Below are positions 5,201-50,243 of a stretch of 64,000 nucleotides of DNA, one piece after another (the first letter of the stretch is position 1; every line of letters starts with the position of its first letter). Made by a program: the position numbers and the translations under genes. This stretch comes from Escherichia coli (GTDB lineage Bacteria > Pseudomonadota > Gammaproteobacteria > Enterobacterales > Enterobacteriaceae): NCBI RefSeq assembly GCF_022846255.1, contig NZ_AP025682.1; one strand, written 5' to 3'. The notes beneath the pieces are model-generated. The model ran no database searches and had not been told where the DNA came from. It worked only from the letters and a program-made list of their open reading frames with translations.

Positions 5201-5416
5201 ATGTTTACTTATTATCAGGCAGAAAATTCAACAGCAGAACCCGCTCTGGTTAATGCCATTGAGCAAGGCCTTCGGGCAGAGCACGGTGTTGTCACTGAAG
5301 ATGACATTCTCATGGAGCTGACCAAATGGGTGGAAGCATCTGATAACGACATCCTCAGTGATATCTACCAGCAAACGATCAATTATGTGGTCAGTGGTCA
5401 GCACCCTACGCTTTAA
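5201..5416 (+). CDS. bdm: biofilm-dependent modulation protein
   Basis: 71-aa product MFTYYQAENSTAEP... starting at an internal ATG of the 92-aa track ORF. Confidence 0.85.
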   Translation: MFTYYQAENSTAEPALVNAIEQGLRAEHGVVTEDDILMELTKWVEASDNDILSDIYQQTINYVVSGQHPTL

Positions 5417-5517
5417 GGTGCTATGCTTGATCGGCAACCTAATTTAGGGGTTTAGCACGTGTTTCTTCGCTACGGCGATGTTGTCCTTAAAACTAGCAAC
5501 AGGATTGAGGAGTTAAA

Positions 5518-5655
5518 ATGAAATCGAACCGTCAGGCACGTCATATTCTTGGACTGGACCATAAAATTTCTAACCAGCGCAAAATAGTTACCGAAGGTGA
5601 CAAATCCAGCGTGGTAAATAATCCCACCGGCAGAAAACGCCCCGCTGAAAAGTAA
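5518..5655 (+). CDS. sra: stationary-phase-induced ribosome-associated protein (45 aa)
   Basis: Hand-translated small [48 protein letters not shown], below the 60-aa track cutoff; RBS ggag upstream; terminator hairpin downstream. Confidence 0.85.
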
Positions 5656-5685
5656 TTCATAACCATCAGTCCTCAATGACGATTA

Positions 5686-5720
5686 AACACCATTGCCTGC
5701 GCAATGGTGTTTTTGTTTTT
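5686..5720 (+). terminator. Rho-independent terminator after sra
   Basis: Inverted repeat aacaccattgc / gcaatggtgtt followed by a T-run. Confidence 0.6.
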
Positions 5721-5811
5721 ATCTGCTTTATACTTGGTACTTGACGCCCTGGCGGTAATGCAAAGACGATAAAAGCCCCCAGGGATGGATATTCAAAAAA
5801 GAGTGAGTGAC

Positions 5812-7509: not shown

Positions 7510-7642
7510 GCCTGCGCCCGGTAGTGAAGGCTACCGGGCAATTTCCCTCTCCCTTTTTCAGATCTCATCCATACTGGGTAGTGGCGAATAAATCTCATTT
7601 GCCTCACCTGCTATGCAGAACATCATCCGAAAAGGAGGAACT

Positions 7643-8653
7643 ATGAAGGCTGCAGTTGTTACGAAGGATCATCATGTTGACGTTACGGATAAAACACTGC
7701 GCTCACTGAAACATGGCGAAGCCCTGCTGAAAATGGAGTGTTGTGGTGTATGTCATACCGATCTTCATGTTAAGAATGGCGATTTTGGTGACAAAACCGG
7801 CGTGATTCTGGGACACGAAGGTATTGGTGTGGTGGCAGAAGTTGGCCCTGGTGTTACTTCATTAAAACCAGGCGATCGTGCCAGCGTGGCGTGGTTCTAT
7901 GAAGGATGCGGTCATTGCGAATACTGTAACAGTGGTAACGAAACGCTCTGCCGTTCAGTTAAAAATGCCGGATACAGCGTTGATGGCGGGATGGCGGAAG
8001 AGTGCATCGTGGTCGCCGATTACGCGGTAAAAGTGCCAGATGGTCTGGACTCGGCGGCGGCCAGCAGCATTACCTGTGCGGGGGTCACTACCTACAAAGC
8101 CGTTAAGCTGTCAAAAATTCGTCCAGGACAGTGGATTGCTATCTACGGTCTTGGCGGTCTGGGTAACCTCGCCCTGCAATACGCGAAGAATGTCTTTAAC
8201 GCCAAAGTGATCGCCATTGATGTCAATGATGAACAGTTAAAACTGGCAACCGAAATGGGTGCAGATTTAGCGATTAACTCACGCACCGAAGACGCCGCCA
8301 GAATTGTGCAGGAGAAAGCCGGTGGCGCTCACGCAGCGGTGGTGACAGCGGTAGCTAAAGCTGCGTTTAACTCGGCGGTGGATGCTGTCCGTGCAGGTGG
8401 TCGTGTCGTGGCTGTCGGTCTGCCGCCGGAGTCTATGAGCCTGGACATCCCACGGCTGGTGCTGGATGGTATTGAAGTGGTCGGTTCGCTGGTCGGCACG
8501 CGTCAGGATCTCACCGAAGCCTTCCAGTTTGCCGCCGAAGGCAAAGTGGTGCCGAAAGTCGCCCTGCGTCCGTTAGCGGACATCAACACCATCTTTACCG
8601 AGATGGAAGAAGGCAAAATCCGTGGCCGTATGGTGATTGATTTCCGTCGCTAA
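7643..8653 (+). CDS. adhP: zinc-dependent alcohol dehydrogenase (propanol-preferring)
   Basis: 336-aa product [11 protein letters not shown]... with GHEGIGVV zinc-ADH motif. Confidence 0.95.
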
Positions 8654-10676: not shown

Positions 10677-13600
10677 TTACGCCTTCTCGATGTTGACTAA
10701 GAACGCTTTATATTCCGGCGTTTGCGAGTTTGCATCACCGACATTCGGCGTCAGAGTGTTAGCGATATAACCTTTACGCGCGACACCCTCAAAGCCCCAG
10801 TGGATCGGAATACCCACCGTTTCAACCTGCTGACCGTTTACATTCAGCGGTTTCAGACGGCGCGTTACCACCGCCACCGCGCGGATAAAGCCACGCTTGC
10901 TTGAGACAGTGACACGATCGCCATTATTAATGCCTTTCGCCGCCGCCAGCGTTTCGCTGATTTCCACAAACTGTTCCGGCTGAGCAATTGCGTTGAGCAA
11001 CGCGTGCTTGGTCCAGGTGTGGAAGTGCTCGGTCAGACGATAGGTCGTACCCACATACGGGAACTGCTCTTTTTTACCCATCCGCAGCGCGTCTTGTTCA
11101 TACAGACGAACGACCGGGTTAGACACCACGTTCGGATGCAGCGGGTTAGTGCCCAGCGGCGTTTCAATCGGCTCGTAGTGTTCCGGGAACGGACCTTCCG
11201 CCATTTTGTTGATGGCAAACAGGCGTCCCATCCCTTCCGGCTGCATGATAAACGGTCCGGTTGGTGTACCTGGCGCGGCATTGCCGAAGTCCGGAATATC
11301 GTTACCCGTCCACTTGCTGCCGTTCCACTGAATCAGCATCCGTTTCGGATCCCACGGTTTACCGTTGATATCCGCCGAAGCACGGTTGTAGAGTACGCGA
11401 CGGTTGAGCGGCCACGCCCAGGCCCATCCCAGCGTATTCCCCAGACCAGATGGGTCAGAGTTATCGCGGTTAGCCATCTGGTTGCCCTGCTCTGTCCAGC
11501 TACCGGTGTAGATCCAGCAAGACGATGCGGTTGTACCGTCATCACGCAGATGCGCAAAGCTACTCAGCAACTGACCTTTCTTCGCAATCAGCACGCCATT
11601 GGCATCATAGAGATCTTCCAGCGCGTAGCCGTTGTTCTCTTTCGCTACTTCGTCAGATTGCGGTTCGTGCGGCTGCTTGTAGTTCCAGCTCATCTTCATC
11701 AGCGGTTCTACGCCTTTACCACCCTCGGCCTGGTACAGCTCGCGCAGATGATGGTAGATACCCGCCAGAATTTCGCCGTCGTTACGTGCTTCGCCCGGCG
11801 CGTCCTGACCTTTCCAGTGCCACTGCAACCAGCGACCGGAGTTAGCGATAGAACCATCTTCTTCAGCAAAGCAGGTCGAAGGCAGACGGAATACTTCAGT
11901 CTGAATAGATGCCGGATCGACATCGTTCGACTCGCCGTGGTTCTGCCAGAAGGTAGAGGTTTCAGTCACCAGCGGATCGATAACCACCATGTACTTCAGT
12001 TTGCTCAGGCAGCTCACCACTTTGTTTTTGTCCGGGAAGGACGCAACCGGGTTAAAGCCCTGGCAGAAATAACCGGTGACTTTGCCTTCGTCCATCATGT
12101 TGAAATACTTGATGACGTCGTAGGTCTGGTCCCACTTCGGCAGCCAGTCGTAGCCCCAGTTGTTCTCTTTCTGCGCGGCATCGCCGTAGAAAGATTTCAT
12201 CAGGCTAACGAAAAACTTCGGATAGTTGCTCCAGTAGTTCACCTGATCAGCCAGCGTCGCTTTCGGCGTGTTCGCTTCCAGATACGACTGCAAATCAACC
12301 TGTTTTTCTGACGGCAGCGTCAGATAACCTGGCAGGCTGGTAGAGAGCAGGCCTAAGTCAGTCAGGCCCTGAATGTTGGAGTGACCACGCAATGCGTTCA
12401 CGCCGCCACCGGCCATACCCATGTTACCGAGCAGCAACTGGATCATCGCCATCGTACGGATGTTCTGCGCACCCACGGTGTGCTGCGTCCAGCCCAGCGC
12501 GTACAGGAAGGTGGTTGTGCGATCCGGTGCGCTGGTGGAGGCCAGCACTTCACACACTTTCAGGAAGTCGGCTTTTGGCGTACCGCAAATGTTTTCTACT
12601 ACGTCCGGCGTGTAGCGGGAAACGTGCGCTTTCAGCAGATTCCATACACAGCGCGGATGAGTCAGCGTGTCATCGCGTTTCGCATAGCCGTTTTCATCGA
12701 ACTGATAGTTCCAGGACGACTTATCGTATTGACGTTTTTCAGCGTCGTAGCCGCTGAACAGACCGTCTTCGAAAGCAAAATCATCACGCACCAGCAGGCT
12801 GGCGTTGGTGTAATGCTTAACGTATTCGGCGTTGATTTTGTTGTTTTCGATCAGGTAGCGCAAAACGCCAGACAGGAACGTAATGTCCGTACCGGAACGA
12901 ATAGGTGCGTAAATATCCGCCACAGAAGCGGTACGCGTAAAACGGGGATCGACAACGATCAAGGTTGCATCGTTGTTGTTTTTCGCTTCCATCGCCCAGC
13001 GGAAACCGACGGGATGCGCTTCAGCAGCGTTACCGCCCATCACCATTACGACGTTAGCGTTTTTGATATCCACCCAGTGGTTGGTCATCGCACCGCGACC
13101 AAATGTTGGAGCAAGACTTGCTACCGTTGGTCCGTGTCAGACGCGCGCCTGGTTGTCTACCGCCAGCATCCCGAGGGAGCGGGCAAATTTTTGAGTCAGC
13201 ATCCCGGTTTCGTTGCTGGCACCGGAAGCACACAGCATACCGGTAGAAAGCCAACGGTTTACCGTTACGCCCTGCTCGTTCTTTTCAATAAAGTTAGCGT
13301 CACGGTCGGCTTTCATCAGCTTCGCAATACGGGAGAATGCTTCTTCCCAGCTAATGCGCTGCCATTTGTCAGAACCTGGCGCACGATATTCCGGGTAGCG
13401 CAGACGGTTTTCGCTGTTGACGTAATCCAGCAAACCGGCCCCTTTCGGGCACAGCGCACCACGGCTTACCGGATGATCCGGGTCACCTTCAATGTGATAA
13501 ATCGCTTCTCTGGCGTTTTTCGCGCCATCACCCAGGCTATACATCAATAGCCCGCAACCTACGGAACAGTATGTGCAGGTGTTACGGATCTCTTTCGCGC

Positions 13601-13724
13601 GTAATAATTTGTAGTTTCGCGCCTGAGCCAGTGCTTGCTTCGGGGCAAAGCCCAATGCTGCTACTGTTGTTCCCGCCATACCGCCCGCGCAGATTTTAAA
13701 AAATTGTCTGCGACTGACGTCCAT
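10677..13724 (-). CDS. fdnG: formate dehydrogenase-N catalytic (alpha) subunit, selenocysteine-containing
   Basis: Two track ORFs (13137..13724 and 10677..13088) are in the same frame, separated only by a TGA at 13137..13139; N-terminus MDVSRRQFFKICAGG is a twin-arginine signal; total 1016 codons. Confidence 0.95.
13089..13136 (-). other. region expected to carry the SECIS stem-loop directing Sec insertion at the fdnG UGA
   Basis: Immediately 3' of the in-frame UGA on the mRNA; inferred from bacterial selenoprotein biology, structure not folded here. Confidence 0.5.
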
Positions 13725-13843
13725 TGCTTTCCTCTTTTTTCAGGGGTATTACTGCGCGAGGAAACTAACAGTAAAATTCTGAATCTTTTTGCGCGAAATC
13801 AAAAAGAACACGTGTTTGCCACAAAATAATCCTCCTGCGCAAA

Positions 13844-14838: not shown

Positions 14839-15110
14839 AATAATTGTCGGGTCTACGGCCCGGCAGTTAATCAGATAAATTCTGACAATATTAAAAAATA
14901 AATTTCAAATACCAGAAAGTCATTTTAGTTACATTTAGTAACACATATCTGTCTGTTTATTCCACATTCTGCCCCCGCAGTTACGCTTTCTTATCTATTC
15001 TTCTAATCAGCACTTCACCTGATTCATCCTTAATTCTAATAACTGGCTATTGCGCCTTACCTCCTGTTTTGTCTTTTTTTCATTACCAATGTGTGCATGT
15101 GAGGAACAAT

Positions 15111-24227: not shown

Positions 24228-24304
24228 GCCTGATGCGCTTCGCTTATCAGGTCTACAACCGGGCTAATGTAGGCCGGATAAGGCGTTTACGCCACATCCG
24301 GCAA
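24228..24304. repeat. BIME / paired REP elements between convergent yddE and nhoA
   Basis: gcctgatgcgcttcgcttatcaggtctac followed by gtaggccggataaggcgtttacgccacatccggcaa, classic REP consensus. Confidence 0.6.
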
Positions 24305-24315
24305 CCTGACATAAA

Positions 24316-26136: not shown

Positions 26137-26441
26137 GATTGTGCTCCTTTTGAAAGATGTCAGTAAAATTAACACACGTTGTGAATGTCGTGTGTCCGGT
26201 AATGCGTTTTTACGGCAATAATGCCTACTTGAAATTGTACATATTTGTACTACACACTTTTAAATAAAGCGCCAATGAAAACGTTAACTTGCAGAATATA
26301 TTCTTCGCCAACATGCCATTAAGAAAACATCAAGTTCCCGGCTTGCCAATTTGTTAACGCCCATTATAGTTATTCTTGCCCTCACTAAAAATTTTCATCC
26401 GTAATTACCCCCAATAAAAATCCATTCTGGAGACGCTTAAG

Positions 26442-30427: not shown

Positions 30428-30747
30428 ATGGCTGAACACGATATTACGCCAGAAGTCGCCATTTCCAAAACACAGCGCCGCTATAAAGTCGGCTATGTCA
30501 GAGCCCGCCACATAAACAGCAAACCACGTACTACTCACGACACCCCAGCCTGAACCTTAAGGGCGACTGGCTGAAAGAGGCCGGATTTGATACCGGACGG
30601 GGTGTCACGGTGAAGATTTCGGAGGGGTGCCTGACCATCATCGCTGACAGTGACGAGGTGCAGGAACTGCGGGAGGAACTTTATCAGGTTAAACAGGTGG
30701 TTAAGGGGATGCGGAACGGGATGTTTAGTGTGCTGAACGAGAATTAA
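30428..30747 (+). pseudogene. symE-like type I toxin gene (AbrB-fold), apparently frameshifted
   Basis: 41 codons from ATG 30428 (MAEHDITPEVAISKTQRRYKVGYVRARHINSKP...) end at TGA about 30551; the SymE core LNLKGDWLKEAGFDTGRGVTVKISEGCLTII... continues in the -1 frame to TAA about 30745; restoring one C near 30550 would fuse them. Confidence 0.6.
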
Positions 30748-31100: not shown

Positions 31101-31440
31101 CTATATCTATCCTCACCATTGTCCCATCAGAACGTTTAATATTTATATGAGGCAAAGAACCATGCCCTGTGCCTTTATGGTCATCATGACCATATACACG
31201 ACCAGTATTAGAATCAATAGGGTAATCTTTCCTATAACGGACAGTACCATCTCTTTTCTTAAATTGTTCCATCTTATGTTTTTTTCTAATACCGGCGGCA
31301 TCCTGCGAACTGATCCCTCTTACTTTTTGAGCATCAGGAAAGGCCTCCATCAATAAATCATGGGCTTCCTGTTTTGATTTAACTGTGACAACGGTTCCTT
31401 GAGGCCCCAGGGCAAGATTACGAAAGCCCGCTCCCCGCAA
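31093..31440 (-). CDS. putative orphan polymorphic-toxin C-terminal domain (3' fragment of an IS-disrupted gene)
   Basis: Track ORF begins inside the ISAs1 end with a TTG; first ATG gives [10 protein letters not shown]... (about 31350); C-terminal His-rich motif [21 protein letters not shown] is reminiscent of HNH/beta-beta-alpha-Me nuclease toxins; low GC. Confidence 0.4.
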
Positions 31441-32695
31441 GGACTGACGCCAGATAGTTTCTGTCCATGGCTGCTTTTCGCATCTTACGTCTTAACCCTG
31501 CCTTGAATACCTTATCATTCGTCAAAATATTAATAGCGATGTGCCGTATCCCTGAAAATAATTCTGCTGCATTTCCTCTTCTTATTTTGCAGTCGTCTTC
31601 ATTCATTACCACGTCCAGACGCCAGTGCAGCTTATTCTCCACGTGCCAGTGGTTTCGGATTGCTGTGGCGAACTTCTCTGCGGTTAAATCAGCAGAACTG
31701 ATATAATATCTGACCGTCATTTCTGGCTATTTCTTTTGTTCTGCTATTATGGACCGAAAGGAGACTGCCACGCATAATTTCTTCAGTCCTTTCCATTCAA
31801 ACGTGAAATCAATAAGTTCATCAGGGACATCGCAAACAATATGAAGACGGATTTCTTCTCTGCCGTGACTTTTTTCACTAATTGCGTAACTGTCATGCTC
31901 TGGATTATTCAATTCTTTCAGCGGAAATTTTTCCTCGAAGGCTTTATTTAGCCGCCCCTGGTTTCCTTTTACAGCGAATAAATAATCACCTCCCTGTTTT
32001 TGTATCTTCTCTGCAATATCTTTCTGGCAACCCATCGCATCAGTTGTGATGATTTTTCCTTTAATATCCAGCATGTTAAGAAGTTCAGGGATAGCTGTAA
32101 TTTCATTGGATTTCTCATCCGTCCTGATCTGTCCGATGACCAGACTGTGCATTGTTGAGAACGCACTAATGACATGAATCGCTCCCCTGCGGCGACTCTT
32201 GTCATAAGAATGTCGGAGCGTTTTTCCATCAATTGCAATAACGTCTTTATCATCTGAAGAATGGCAGTCACGCATCCAGTTAATAAAGCACTCGTGAAAT
32301 TTTGCAGGACTGATACAGGATACAACTCTGGCAATGGTATCGTGAACAGGAATACCATTTTCAAAATCACCATATTGCTTCAAAAAATCGAGATGTGTTT
32401 CCCCAAAACCCTCTATATCTTCCCAGCCTTCTGCACCAGAAATAACGGCACAAATAGTCAACAGTAGAATATCCGATAATTTATGTTCCACTTTCCAGGC
32501 TTGTCTGTAATCGGGGATAATAGAAATATGTTCCATCAATTTTTTAAGTACCATTTTGTTCTCCTTAATTATGTAAGGAGTATTTGATCATGTATAAGCA
32601 ATAAAAAACAGCTTCAGGTAATAAGGAATATCTCAATTTTTAAACATAAAATGCGAATTATTTAGTACAAAAAAGCAGCGTTACGTGATCTTTCC
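31400..32695 (-). mobile_element. ISAs1-family (H-repeat) insertion sequence
   Basis: Transposase reading frame of about 379 codons (31418..32554) with the [26 protein letters not shown]-terminal signature; upstream boundary set where the two copies' flanks diverge (after ...gtgatctttcc). Confidence 0.7.
31418..32554 (-). pseudogene. ISAs1-family transposase, split by a frameshift near 31720-31727
   Basis: 275-aa N-terminal ORF (31727..32554) and 100-aa C-terminal ORF (31418..31720) are contiguous in different frames. Confidence 0.7.
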
Positions 32696-32871
32696 CTGGT
32701 TATCGCTGTTCTTTCCCCTTGACCAGGCAAATATTTTTCATTATGGATCCATACCTTGCTATAATCAATTGTATTCTCAAAAATCGATCTGGCCAATGTT
32801 AATTCACCAGATGTCATTCTCCTTAATGACATATCCTTTCCCCTGGAAATAATATCTTTCAGATAAAACAC
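32662..32871 (-). pseudogene. 5' fragment of a gene truncated by the ISAs1 insertion; N-terminus resembles DUF4157-type domains
   Basis: 69-aa ORF whose last about 12 codons are encoded by IS-end sequence; motif LARSIFENTIDYSKVWIH resembles the E..fG.DfS.VRVH N-terminal signature of DUF4157 (a recollection, not verified). Confidence 0.35.
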
Positions 32872-33769
32872 AAACGCTCTTTGATGTTCAACATTCCCAC
32901 TTTATACAGTATTGATGGCATCATCTTCATAGAAAATGAAATCAAAGCAAGTTATCAACGTTTCCCATTACGATTTCTTAACATTAATTCTCAGCATTTT
33001 TATTAATCTATTTTCAATATCAATAACCGATGCAAATGATTACGCAGTTAACATAATCCTTATCAATTGATTAATATCTGTAAACGCTACCGCCCCACCC
33101 TGATATCTTAATCTGCACATAGCAATCTTAACGTTATGCCCCATACATTAGTAATGTAAATTAAGAATTCGGAATATATCAAATTCACTTCATAAATTAA
33201 TATCGGGAATGATATACACATTAATTATATTGAAGTAATGGTTTAAGAGTTGTAATGACCATGGAACAGGACTAATTCCAGAAACTCCTGTTGGGCAATA
33301 GCGCGTTTATCATCCTACATGCCTCTTACATTTTTTAGCCTTTTCTTTAACGTCAGCAATTGGCTCATTTAATCAGCAATGGTATTGGTATTTGGCGTAT
33401 TACCCCTGAAACCCGTCATGTGCTAGCACCTCACTATTCAATGAGCCAACCACGCCAGTGTCCACTGCAACCACTGGCGTTCAGAGCGACGAACGAGTGG
33501 CGCAAGAGTAGGACTGCCGTCGGGCATCATCAAACCAATAGTTGTTGTTTCCGTCAAAATTTCATCAGGTTGCTATTTGGTTGCCGGCCGCCTTTATCCC
33601 CACATATTTATAGCGGGATTATTTTGCATCGTTACACGATAAAAGGTAGGATTCTGCGCCGACAGTTATACCCATAAAGAATAATGGTGAATCTTGTCAT
33701 CGCCAGGATGAATAAACATTGTTCATGGCAACTTATATGACTTTTTCATTAAAGCAATCAGGGAGAGCA

Positions 33770-42189: not shown

Positions 42190-42363
42190 TTAAAACAGAG
42201 AAAACAACAGCGCCACCGGGAAACTCATCGGCCATGTTGCCCCCACCAGAAAGGCGCTTAAGAAACGGATGCGTTTCTTATCGTGAGAAAGAAACCAGGT
42301 GATAAGAAATGCGATTGCTGCCATAACCGCATAAAAAACAAGCATATGTTGATAGAGAGACAT
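42190..42363 (-). CDS. ortT: small membrane toxin OrtT (orphan toxin related to TisB)
   Basis: 57-aa hydrophobic product MSLYQHMLVFYAVMAAIAFLITWFLSHDKK...; track ORF has a 22-codon upstream extension. Confidence 0.8.
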   Translation of the reverse strand: MSLYQHMLVFYAVMAAIAFLITWFLSHDKKRIRFLSAFLVGATWPMSFPVALLFSLF

Positions 42364-42558
42364 GTACGGGCGTCCAGCCAGATGAATAAAACGCGCGCAA
42401 ATATGCGTCATTTTTTTGACGTGCATCAAGTTTTTTCACCAGTTAGAGAAAAAATCATCAAACAGCAACTTGCCCTTCTCTATCTTCAGAATGAGTATTA
42501 TTGCGGATTTTCTTAACCCGTACTATACACATAGGGGCAATGATAAAAGGTGGCAAAA

Positions 42559-42654
42559 ATGAATGTTTCCAGTAGAACTGTAGTACTGATAAATGTCTTT
42601 GCTGCTGTTGGTTTGTTTACTCTTATCTCTATGAGATTTGGCTGGTTTATTTGA
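42559..42654 (+). CDS. yncL: small protein YncL (31 aa, single TM helix)
   Basis: Hand-translated MNVSSRTVVLINVFAAVGLFTLISMRFGWFI, below the track cutoff; RBS aaaggtgg 8 nt upstream. Confidence 0.7.
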   Translation: MNVSSRTVVLINVFAAVGLFTLISMRFGWFI

Positions 42655-42750
42655 TGTTGTGATTTTGCACGCAGCACGTACTGTCAGAGAAATCAGTGCT
42701 CTGACAGTACGCAAGATCATCTCATACTCTTACGATCTGCAATATTATCC

Positions 42751-48099: not shown

Positions 48100-48343
48100 A
48101 AGGTCTTACTCCTGTCGTAATTAATTGTTCAGCCGCCGTGCCGTAAAAATATCTCCTTGTTTAACCATAGACGGCGGCTTGCAGGCACACCTTCGGCCCT
48201 GAGAAAATTTAATCAGGTTGTGAGCTACCGCGCATTATGCCGTCTGTAAGGTTATCTTCTGGAGTATAGACAAGGAGTTAGGATATATGACTGCTATTCG
48301 AAATTCATATTACCCAACCTGAGAGGAATTAAATTAAACGCTA

Positions 48344-49828: not shown

Positions 49829-50032
<204 letters not shown>

Positions 50033-50243
50033 TTCAATAAAGTGATCGTGACTATTTAATGGCGAAGTTTACCTCCGTGTGTAATGTGCTCGAAAATAGC
50101 ACTAAATCGCCGCAACGGCAGAATGCAATGCAAAATCAGGAAGGAAGATTCCAGAATTTCTTTGCTCTAATTTGCAAAACTGAATAATAACCTCAAGAAA
50201 CGATCGGCATCATAGCGGCAAAAGGTTAGAAAAAGGTGGCGGG

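Follow-up and report, generated by a model that had tools for sequence, protein, structure and literature searches.

The ORF at positions 42559..42654 is too short for a list of open reading frames of at least 60 amino acids, and it raises the question of whether such a list conceals real protein genes and, if so, how many. The preliminary description of the window, that is, of the whole 64,000-nucleotide stretch of Escherichia coli DNA analyzed here, named two genes made invisible by this cutoff, yncL and sra, and supposed that other intergenic regions, especially in the accessory island, hold more. We are nearly certain that yncL and sra are genuine, already characterized small protein genes of E. 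coli; both ORFs were recovered exactly as described, and both are indeed missing from the list. The two genes are textbook-level knowledge, annotated in the RefSeq records inspected and experimentally studied, and there is nothing new in their identification.

Gene Order of the Window

The window is a segment of the E. coli chromosome syntenic with K-12 MG1655 at ~1.495–1.562 Mb, in reversed orientation. Its gene map was obtained by transferring curated CDS coordinates from reference loci. The order begins with ddpA-F, osmC, bdm, sra, maeA, adhP, yddM, fdnIHG, and yddG and continues with narU-narZYWV, yddE, nhoA, yddH, and pptA up to an accessory segment at ~26.2–33.6 kb. Behind this segment lie ansP, yncE, pqqU, mcbR, curA, mnaT, ydcZ, ydcY, ortT, yncL, and patD; downstream of patD are found ydcVUTS, ydcR, a hicB remnant, yncJ, rlhA, sutR, ydcO, and IS609, and the window ends with ydcL, tehBA, ydcK, rimL, ydcH, opgD, and ydcJ.

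Two peculiarities of this map should be mentioned. The fdnG gene appears as two ORFs (10677..13088 and 13137..13724) because it is split at the selenocysteine UGA, which is explained by the SECIS element at 13084..13142 (−) (Rfam RF01989, 84 bits). The hicAB toxin–antitoxin locus, 49829..50067 (−), is degraded: hicA, which encodes 58 aa in K-12, is gone, and of hicB only the 3′ part is left, a state also found in ABU 83972.

Identity and Signals of yncL

The yncL CDS (42559..42654, +) starts with ATG and encodes 31 amino acids followed by a stop codon, MNVSSRTVVLINVFAAVGLFTLISMRFGWFI. K-12 yncL maps to it full-length at 99.0% nucleotide identity, and 30 of the 31 residues are identical; the single change, F13V (TTC to GTC), lies in the hydrophobic core. 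This substitution is widespread and occurs also in Shigella and in other Escherichia species, and the exact allele of the window is carried by at least 1000 contigs under the name ‘stress response membrane protein YncL’. Against the NCBIfam equivalog NF000537 the protein scores 72.5 bits, well above the cut-off of 35, and its match extends over model positions 1–30 of 30; precomputed annotations of its homologues cite a newer Pfam family, PF28073 ‘YncL’. Of 5,426 complete E. coli genomes, >5,400 contain the yncL and sra loci, and both genes are annotated in every RefSeq record listed or inspected. Apart from F13V, the gene agrees with its K-12 counterpart (b4598) in length, in the arrangement of the ATG, the Shine–Dalgarno (SD) site, and an upstream in-frame GTG, in its place between ortT and patD (opposite strand), and in the hairpin downstream.

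YncL has one hydrophobic segment, T7–M25 (mean hydropathy of 2.22 in a 19-residue window), flanked by R6 and R26, and contains no acidic residues. By analogy with the published proteins, from which its localization in this strain is taken, it would be a single-pass small protein of the inner membrane.

The SD site AAAGGTGG (42546..42553, +) ends 5 nt before the ATG and forms a duplex of −7.2 kcal/mol with the 3′ end of 16S rRNA. Mechanical ORF calling places the start at the GTG at 42550; this codon falls within the SD site, and its own SD is weaker (−5.6 kcal/mol). The true start of yncL is the ATG at 42559, and the GTG is rejected; in Salmonella, yncL likewise has a GTG three codons upstream, and the same conclusion on the start was reached there (PMC5437024). 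A putative −10 box, C-TATACA (42523..42529, +), was recognized by cross-genus conservation only; a generic sigma-70 scan flagged no yncL promoter. A C located upstream of the −10 box is typical of sigma-S promoters, and judging from its sequence the putative yncL box resembles an element of this type.

Between yncL and patD there is a perfect 13-bp inverted repeat (42677..42711; CGTACTGTCAGAG / CTCTGACAGTACG) with a 9-nt loop, folding at −21.6 and −22.7 kcal/mol on the two strands. Neither strand carries a U-run after this hairpin, and the terminator search called no intrinsic terminator here; it is probably a 3′-end stabilizer or a terminator for the convergent yncL and patD transcripts. The two genes have been described as a convergent transcriptional-overlap pair (PMC12288877).

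Selection on the yncL Frame

An exhaustive phmmer search with YncL against 1.84 billion representative proteins gave nine matches, among which the truly diverged members are only P0049 (70% identity) and P0051 (63%). The family is thus narrow, with just these two diverged members, and the contexts seen are enterobacterial. A third candidate, P0050 (MNVFSRIVVLINFFVVVGLFIFIFMRFGWFI, 74% identity), was rejected as a diverged YncL because its locus, L012, is C-to-T-converted E. coli DNA. The same genome-wide C-to-T conversion of E. coli DNA was observed in all three Logan assemblies L012–L014 (SRR3359617, ERR1356766, and ERR3578269), which appear to be bisulfite-type libraries taken as native sequence and thus to generate false diverged protein variants.

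The diverged yncL genes lie in a Salmonella-like locus (L008, with srfB as a neighbor) and in Klebsiella-like loci (L009–L011, with KPN01023 as a neighbor). The gene arrangement is shared by all three genera, with ortT on the minus strand followed by yncL on the plus strand and a patD-type aldehyde dehydrogenase gene convergent with yncL. Each of the loci L008–L011 has one additional small gene between yncL and the patD-type gene, of 82 aa in L008 (3168..3416, −) and of 122 aa in L009 (3148..3516, −). The genes of 82 and 122 aa have no Pfam match, and E. coli has only the 13-bp hairpin at this position.

The ortT–yncL spacer cannot be aligned across the three genera except for the CTATAC(A/T/C) box with its upstream C and the SD site, the latter conserved in position as GGTGG/GGAGG in the Salmonella-like and Klebsiella-like loci. 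Within the coding region, the pairwise dN/dS of the yncL frame is 0.14–0.16 where computable, while the other two forward frames give values >1; synonymous sites are near or past saturation across genera (pS 0.65–0.80). The cross-genus differences fall on the three codon positions as 10/3/17. yncL is under frame-specific purifying selection across the three genera.

In the alignment, conservation is concentrated at the termini of YncL, and the hydrophobic core varies. The pattern M-[ND]-VSS-[RK]-TV-x-LIN ... S-x-RFGW is found also in P0049 and P0051, and such a distribution fits a predicted transmembrane helix with important ends.

Expression and Function of YncL

According to Hemm 2008/2010, as summarized in PMC12542507, the level of YncL is raised in minimal medium, upon heat shock, and in the stationary phase, and the protein was seen by epitope tagging. 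The intact protein was also found by top-down MS (PMC12529367). Expression of YncL leads to sublethal membrane depolarization, a phage-shock response, reduced protein synthesis, nucleoid condensation, and sensitivity to magainin-2 (PMC12542507); the published phenotypes stem from plasmid expression in the exponential phase. YncL is cleaved in vivo by the S2P protease RseP, also when the enzyme is expressed from the chromosome; the cleavage of this class II substrate was not reproduced in vitro (PMC10470546). The Salmonella orthologue, first catalogued as the sRNA STnc1110, is sigma-S dependent; the tagged protein was not detected there, and its expression was seen with a lacZ fusion only (PMC5437024). 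A PDB sequence search gave no solved structure containing YncL or Sra.

These data, together with the signals described above, suggest the following scheme. A short yncL mRNA, made from a promoter with a sigma-S-type −10 box and carrying an SD site of its own, would give a 31-residue inner-membrane protein, which would be induced in minimal medium, upon heat shock, and in the stationary phase. Accumulated YncL would partially depolarize the cytoplasmic membrane, and this depolarization may lead to the phage-shock response, lower global translation, and a condensed nucleoid. YncL would then appear to be cleared by the intramembrane protease RseP.

YncL resembles YohP and other stress-induced single-pass small membrane proteins in size, in its single transmembrane helix, and in induction in the stationary phase and minimal medium, and expression of YohP likewise causes depolarization and nucleoid condensation (PMC12542507). 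Unlike YohP, YncL is also induced by heat shock, and the effect on magainin-2 oligomerization was shown for YohP only. The likeness concerns size, topology, induction, and effects; no sequence relationship is claimed, and YncL has its own family model.

Two other readings of the locus have to be compared with a protein-coding yncL. The original listing of the Salmonella orthologue as STnc1110 (PMC5437024), the very short transcript ending near a strong hairpin, and the recurrence of yncL RNA in Hfq-dependent RNA–RNA interactomes, where it is paired with RprA and KilS, might indicate that the locus mainly produces a regulatory small RNA, the ORF being incidental, or that the transcript has a dual function. 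The interactomes, however, describe yncL as a target mRNA and not as a regulator. In addition, the frame-specific dN/dS of ~0.15 at saturated synonymous sites, the conserved SD site, detection of the protein by top-down MS (PMC12529367) and by tagging (as summarized in PMC12542507), and the reported protein-level phenotype (PMC12542507) all argue for translation, which makes this reading very improbable; a purely non-coding role is effectively excluded, an RNA role in addition to the protein being conceivable.

The choice of strand and frame leaves even less room for doubt. The ≥60-aa list does contain ORFs antisense to both genes, of 65 aa over yncL (42523..42720, −) and of 68 aa over sra (5470..5676, −); some GenBank records, e.g., that of Nissle 1917, have a 71-aa hypothetical protein (P0019) in the ortT–yncL spacer, a frame called by some pipelines upstream of yncL, and Prokka calls a different ORF embedding yncL (PMC8954029). 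There is virtually no chance that these ORFs are the real genes. ORFs opposite yncL are closed in the Salmonella-like and Klebsiella-like loci, where the longest stop-free stretches are 23–36 aa. The family screen described below covered the 65- and 68-aa antisense ORFs as 5′ truncations, and these truncations gave no Pfam or NCBIfam match. At the antisense starts that were scored, all of them in-frame and internal to the full-length ORFs, the SD sites are weak or moderate, at 0.6 to −5.9 kcal/mol. The 71-aa ORF requires one fewer T in a T-run (~42406–42412) and is split in the window (42346..42562, +), and none of the inspected RefSeq and K-12 records annotates it or the antisense ORFs. We therefore keep the 31-codon ORF on the plus strand as the gene.

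The sra Gene

The sra (rpsV) CDS, 5518..5655 (+), starts with ATG, encodes 45 amino acids followed by a stop codon, and is located between bdm and maeA. K-12 sra maps to it full-length at 97.8% nucleotide identity, the three nucleotide differences all being synonymous changes at third codon positions, and all 45 residues of the protein are identical. Sra scores 74.5 bits with NCBIfam NF007473 (cut-off 35) and 108.2 bits with Pfam PF08136 (cut-off 25), and its exact sequence occurs under this name on at least 1000 contigs. The protein is basic, with 11 K/R against 4 D/E. The SD site TGAGGAG (5506..5512, +), separated from the ATG by 5 nt, forms a duplex of −8.8 kcal/mol. Upstream, bdm (71 aa) occupies 5201..5416 (+), as mapped from K-12, and the bdm-sra unit is closed by an intrinsic terminator (5685..5722, +) consisting of a 12-bp stem with a 4-nt loop (5685–5712) and the T-run TTGTTTTTAT. 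In protein sequence, bdm-sra-maeA context, SD site, and terminator, the gene is the same as that of K-12 Sra/RpsV/‘S22’ (b1480; PF08136 SRA_like), and the three synonymous changes are its only difference.

In K-12, bdm and sra are co-transcribed, the bdm promoter also driving sra, and CsrA represses sra indirectly in the exponential phase (PMC10746276). Sra is associated with ribosomes and regulated (PMC10746276, PMC9959377); it is present on them early in the stationary phase and is lost together with RMF (PMC9959377). In intensity it is one of the top ~150 proteins of E. coli (PMC12529367), and it is thought to be a young hibernation-type factor restricted to Enterobacteriaceae (bioRxiv 10.1101/2025.11.04.686544). 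On this basis, sra of the window would be driven by two promoters, its own and that of bdm upstream, with transcription ended by the strong intrinsic terminator, and the basic 45-residue protein would accumulate on entry into the stationary phase and bind the 30S subunit alongside hibernation factors. For Sra as for YncL, we infer expression, localization, and physiology in this strain from the K-12 and Salmonella literature.

Small Genes Beyond yncL and sra

In the intergenic DNA, 7.3 kb in total, we searched for all ORFs of 10–59 codons and scored the SD duplex of each; in addition, all 93 intergenic ORFs of at least 20 aa were compared with NCBIfam and Pfam. This rescan with a 10-codon minimum and ribosome binding site scoring, which the preliminary description had proposed, places yncL (−7.2 kcal/mol) and sra (−8.8 kcal/mol) among the best SD sites. 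By SD energy, sra ranks third among intergenic small-ORF starts. In the strong-SD shortlist yncL is the most hydrophobic; in the full list, ortT and one unsupported 46-aa ORF stand higher.

The scan brings out a third gene of fewer than 60 aa. The ortT (ydcX) CDS (42190..42363, −) encodes a 57-aa orphan membrane toxin of the GhoT/OrtT family, identical to the K-12 protein at 57 of 57 residues, which passes Pfam PF10753 with 96.9 bits against a gathering threshold of 22.1 and covers model positions 1–55 of 55. It was not listed in the preliminary description because it is masked in an over-extended 79-aa ORF initiated by TTG, so that the list of small genes given there was correct for yncL and sra and incomplete for ortT. 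According to the curated annotation of K-12, which includes the recently validated yncO and yncP, the genes of fewer than 60 aa in the syntenic region are sra, yncL, ortT, and hicA only. Since hicA is deleted here, ortT is the one small gene that was overlooked. Besides hicA, the window also lacks yncO (61 aa) and yncH (70 aa), which are both longer than the cutoff.

It is unlikely that the window, and the accessory island at 26.2–33.6 kb in particular, hides more functional genes of fewer than 60 aa. Intergenic ORFs that start with ATG and have an SD duplex of −7 kcal/mol or lower are in modest excess, 8 being observed against 2.1 ± 1.4 in shuffled sequences; half of the eight, however, are accounted for by known genes, with one site each for sra and yncL and two that lie inside or overlap ortT, and the other four are of 10–19 codons and without other support. 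In the screen of 93 ORFs, only Sra, YncL, and OrtT have an above-threshold family match. A near-threshold match to MotB_plug (22.6 bits against a cut-off of 24) was obtained for a 44-aa ORF at 32936..33070 (+); it was rejected in view of the sub-threshold score, a poor SD site, and mostly non-synonymous changes, which include F26S and I28K in the hydrophobic segment between strains, and is treated as a chance ORF. PGAP calls a 39-aa hypothetical protein (WP_001317812.1) in strain AR_0077 at the equivalent of 33438..33557 (−), yet this ORF begins with TTG, lacks an SD site, lies partly over a 105-aa ORF of the opposite strand, and varies little between strains. Two further island ORFs, of 56 and 41 aa, are truncated remnants of larger genes, a 176-aa Rhs-associated gene and a 109-aa SymE-family gene, respectively. 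The expectation that other intergenic regions or the accessory island contain additional small genes was thus not borne out: the scan and the family screen gave sra, yncL, and ortT.

Six mini-ORFs of 10–25 codons, at 26354..26398 (−), 13765..13842 (−), 24253..24312 (−), 14935..14967 (−), 48287..48322 (+), and 33369..33419 (−), are preceded by strong SD-like sites with energies of −7.7 to −9.7 kcal/mol. The ORF at 13765..13842 lies directly upstream of fdnG, and the peptide of 24253..24312, MSGCRMWRKRLIRPTLARL, may resemble the translation of a REP-type repeat. None of the six is annotated in K-12.

Short ORFs in the Accessory Island

The island carries genes for an alkyl/aryl-sulfatase, a GGDEF-domain protein, a SymE-family type I toxin, and two hypothetical proteins, as well as an ISAs1 fragment, an ISEc1/ydcC transposase gene interrupted by a stop codon, and the 5′ stump of the 176-aa Rhs-associated gene. 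The transposase gene, 31418..32554 (−), is divided by the stop codon into ORFs of 100 and 275 aa. Strain AR_0077 has a complete copy of the 176-aa gene, annotated as ‘type IV secretion protein Rhs’; in the window the gene is cut by ISEc1/ydcC (H-repeat), and the 56-aa ORF at 32662..32832 (−) is its 5′ stump and was rejected as a small gene. The SymE-family gene is a pseudogene (30428..30747, +) in which a 10-nt deletion leaves a stump of 41 codons, and the 41-aa ORF at 30428..30553 (+) was rejected as the 5′ stump of this 109-aa gene. Short ORFs in the island are either remnants of pseudogenes or chance ORFs that lack conservation.

Wholly inside the SymE-family CDS and antisense to it lies a match to the isrA family, described as an ‘Hfq-binding sRNA’ (30499..30617, −; Rfam RF01385, 96.4 bits), which spans the 10-nt deletion. 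In strain 13P477T (L005), which has an intact copy, the SymE-family CDS is at 7529..7858 (+) and the isrA-family match at 7600..7728 (−), with 118.8 bits. The conservation of this RNA family may mirror the opposite SymE coding sequence, or the RNA may be an antitoxin; a literature search found no link between IsrA and SymE-like toxins. The short ORFs are decay products, and the one hidden feature of the island is an antisense RNA and not a small protein.

The ortT–yncL Pair

The ortT and yncL genes are divergent, with start codons 195 nt apart in the window, and a spacing of ~180–195 nt is found in E. coli, in the Salmonella-like locus (L008, 2648..3093), and in a Klebsiella-like locus (L009, 2636..3096). 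OrtT/GhoT toxins (PF10753) are, like YncL, small and hydrophobic and compromise the membrane potential; unlike YncL, OrtT has 57 residues and two predicted helices and belongs to a separate family. The published search for an OrtT antitoxin tested intergenic RNA and ydcY, and the available passages of that work mention no direct test of the YncL protein.

It is conceivable, although we consider it improbable, that the divergent genes form a conserved two-gene unit and are not neighbors by chance, with YncL modulating OrtT or being deployed together with it. If so, YncL could be, for example, a graded, RseP-cleared depolarizer beside a stronger toxin, or a modulator of OrtT at the level of the membrane.

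Implications

The ORFs, SD sites, terminator, family membership, synteny, and purifying selection on yncL, all observed in the present analysis, support the assignment of yncL and sra as small protein genes. The value of this result is mostly methodological, and the negative outcome of the search for further hidden small genes in the window is useful for triage. A cutoff of 60 amino acids hides real, abundant, and physiologically relevant proteins such as Sra and YncL and displays spurious antisense ORFs in their place, an error that some annotation pipelines make at yncL.
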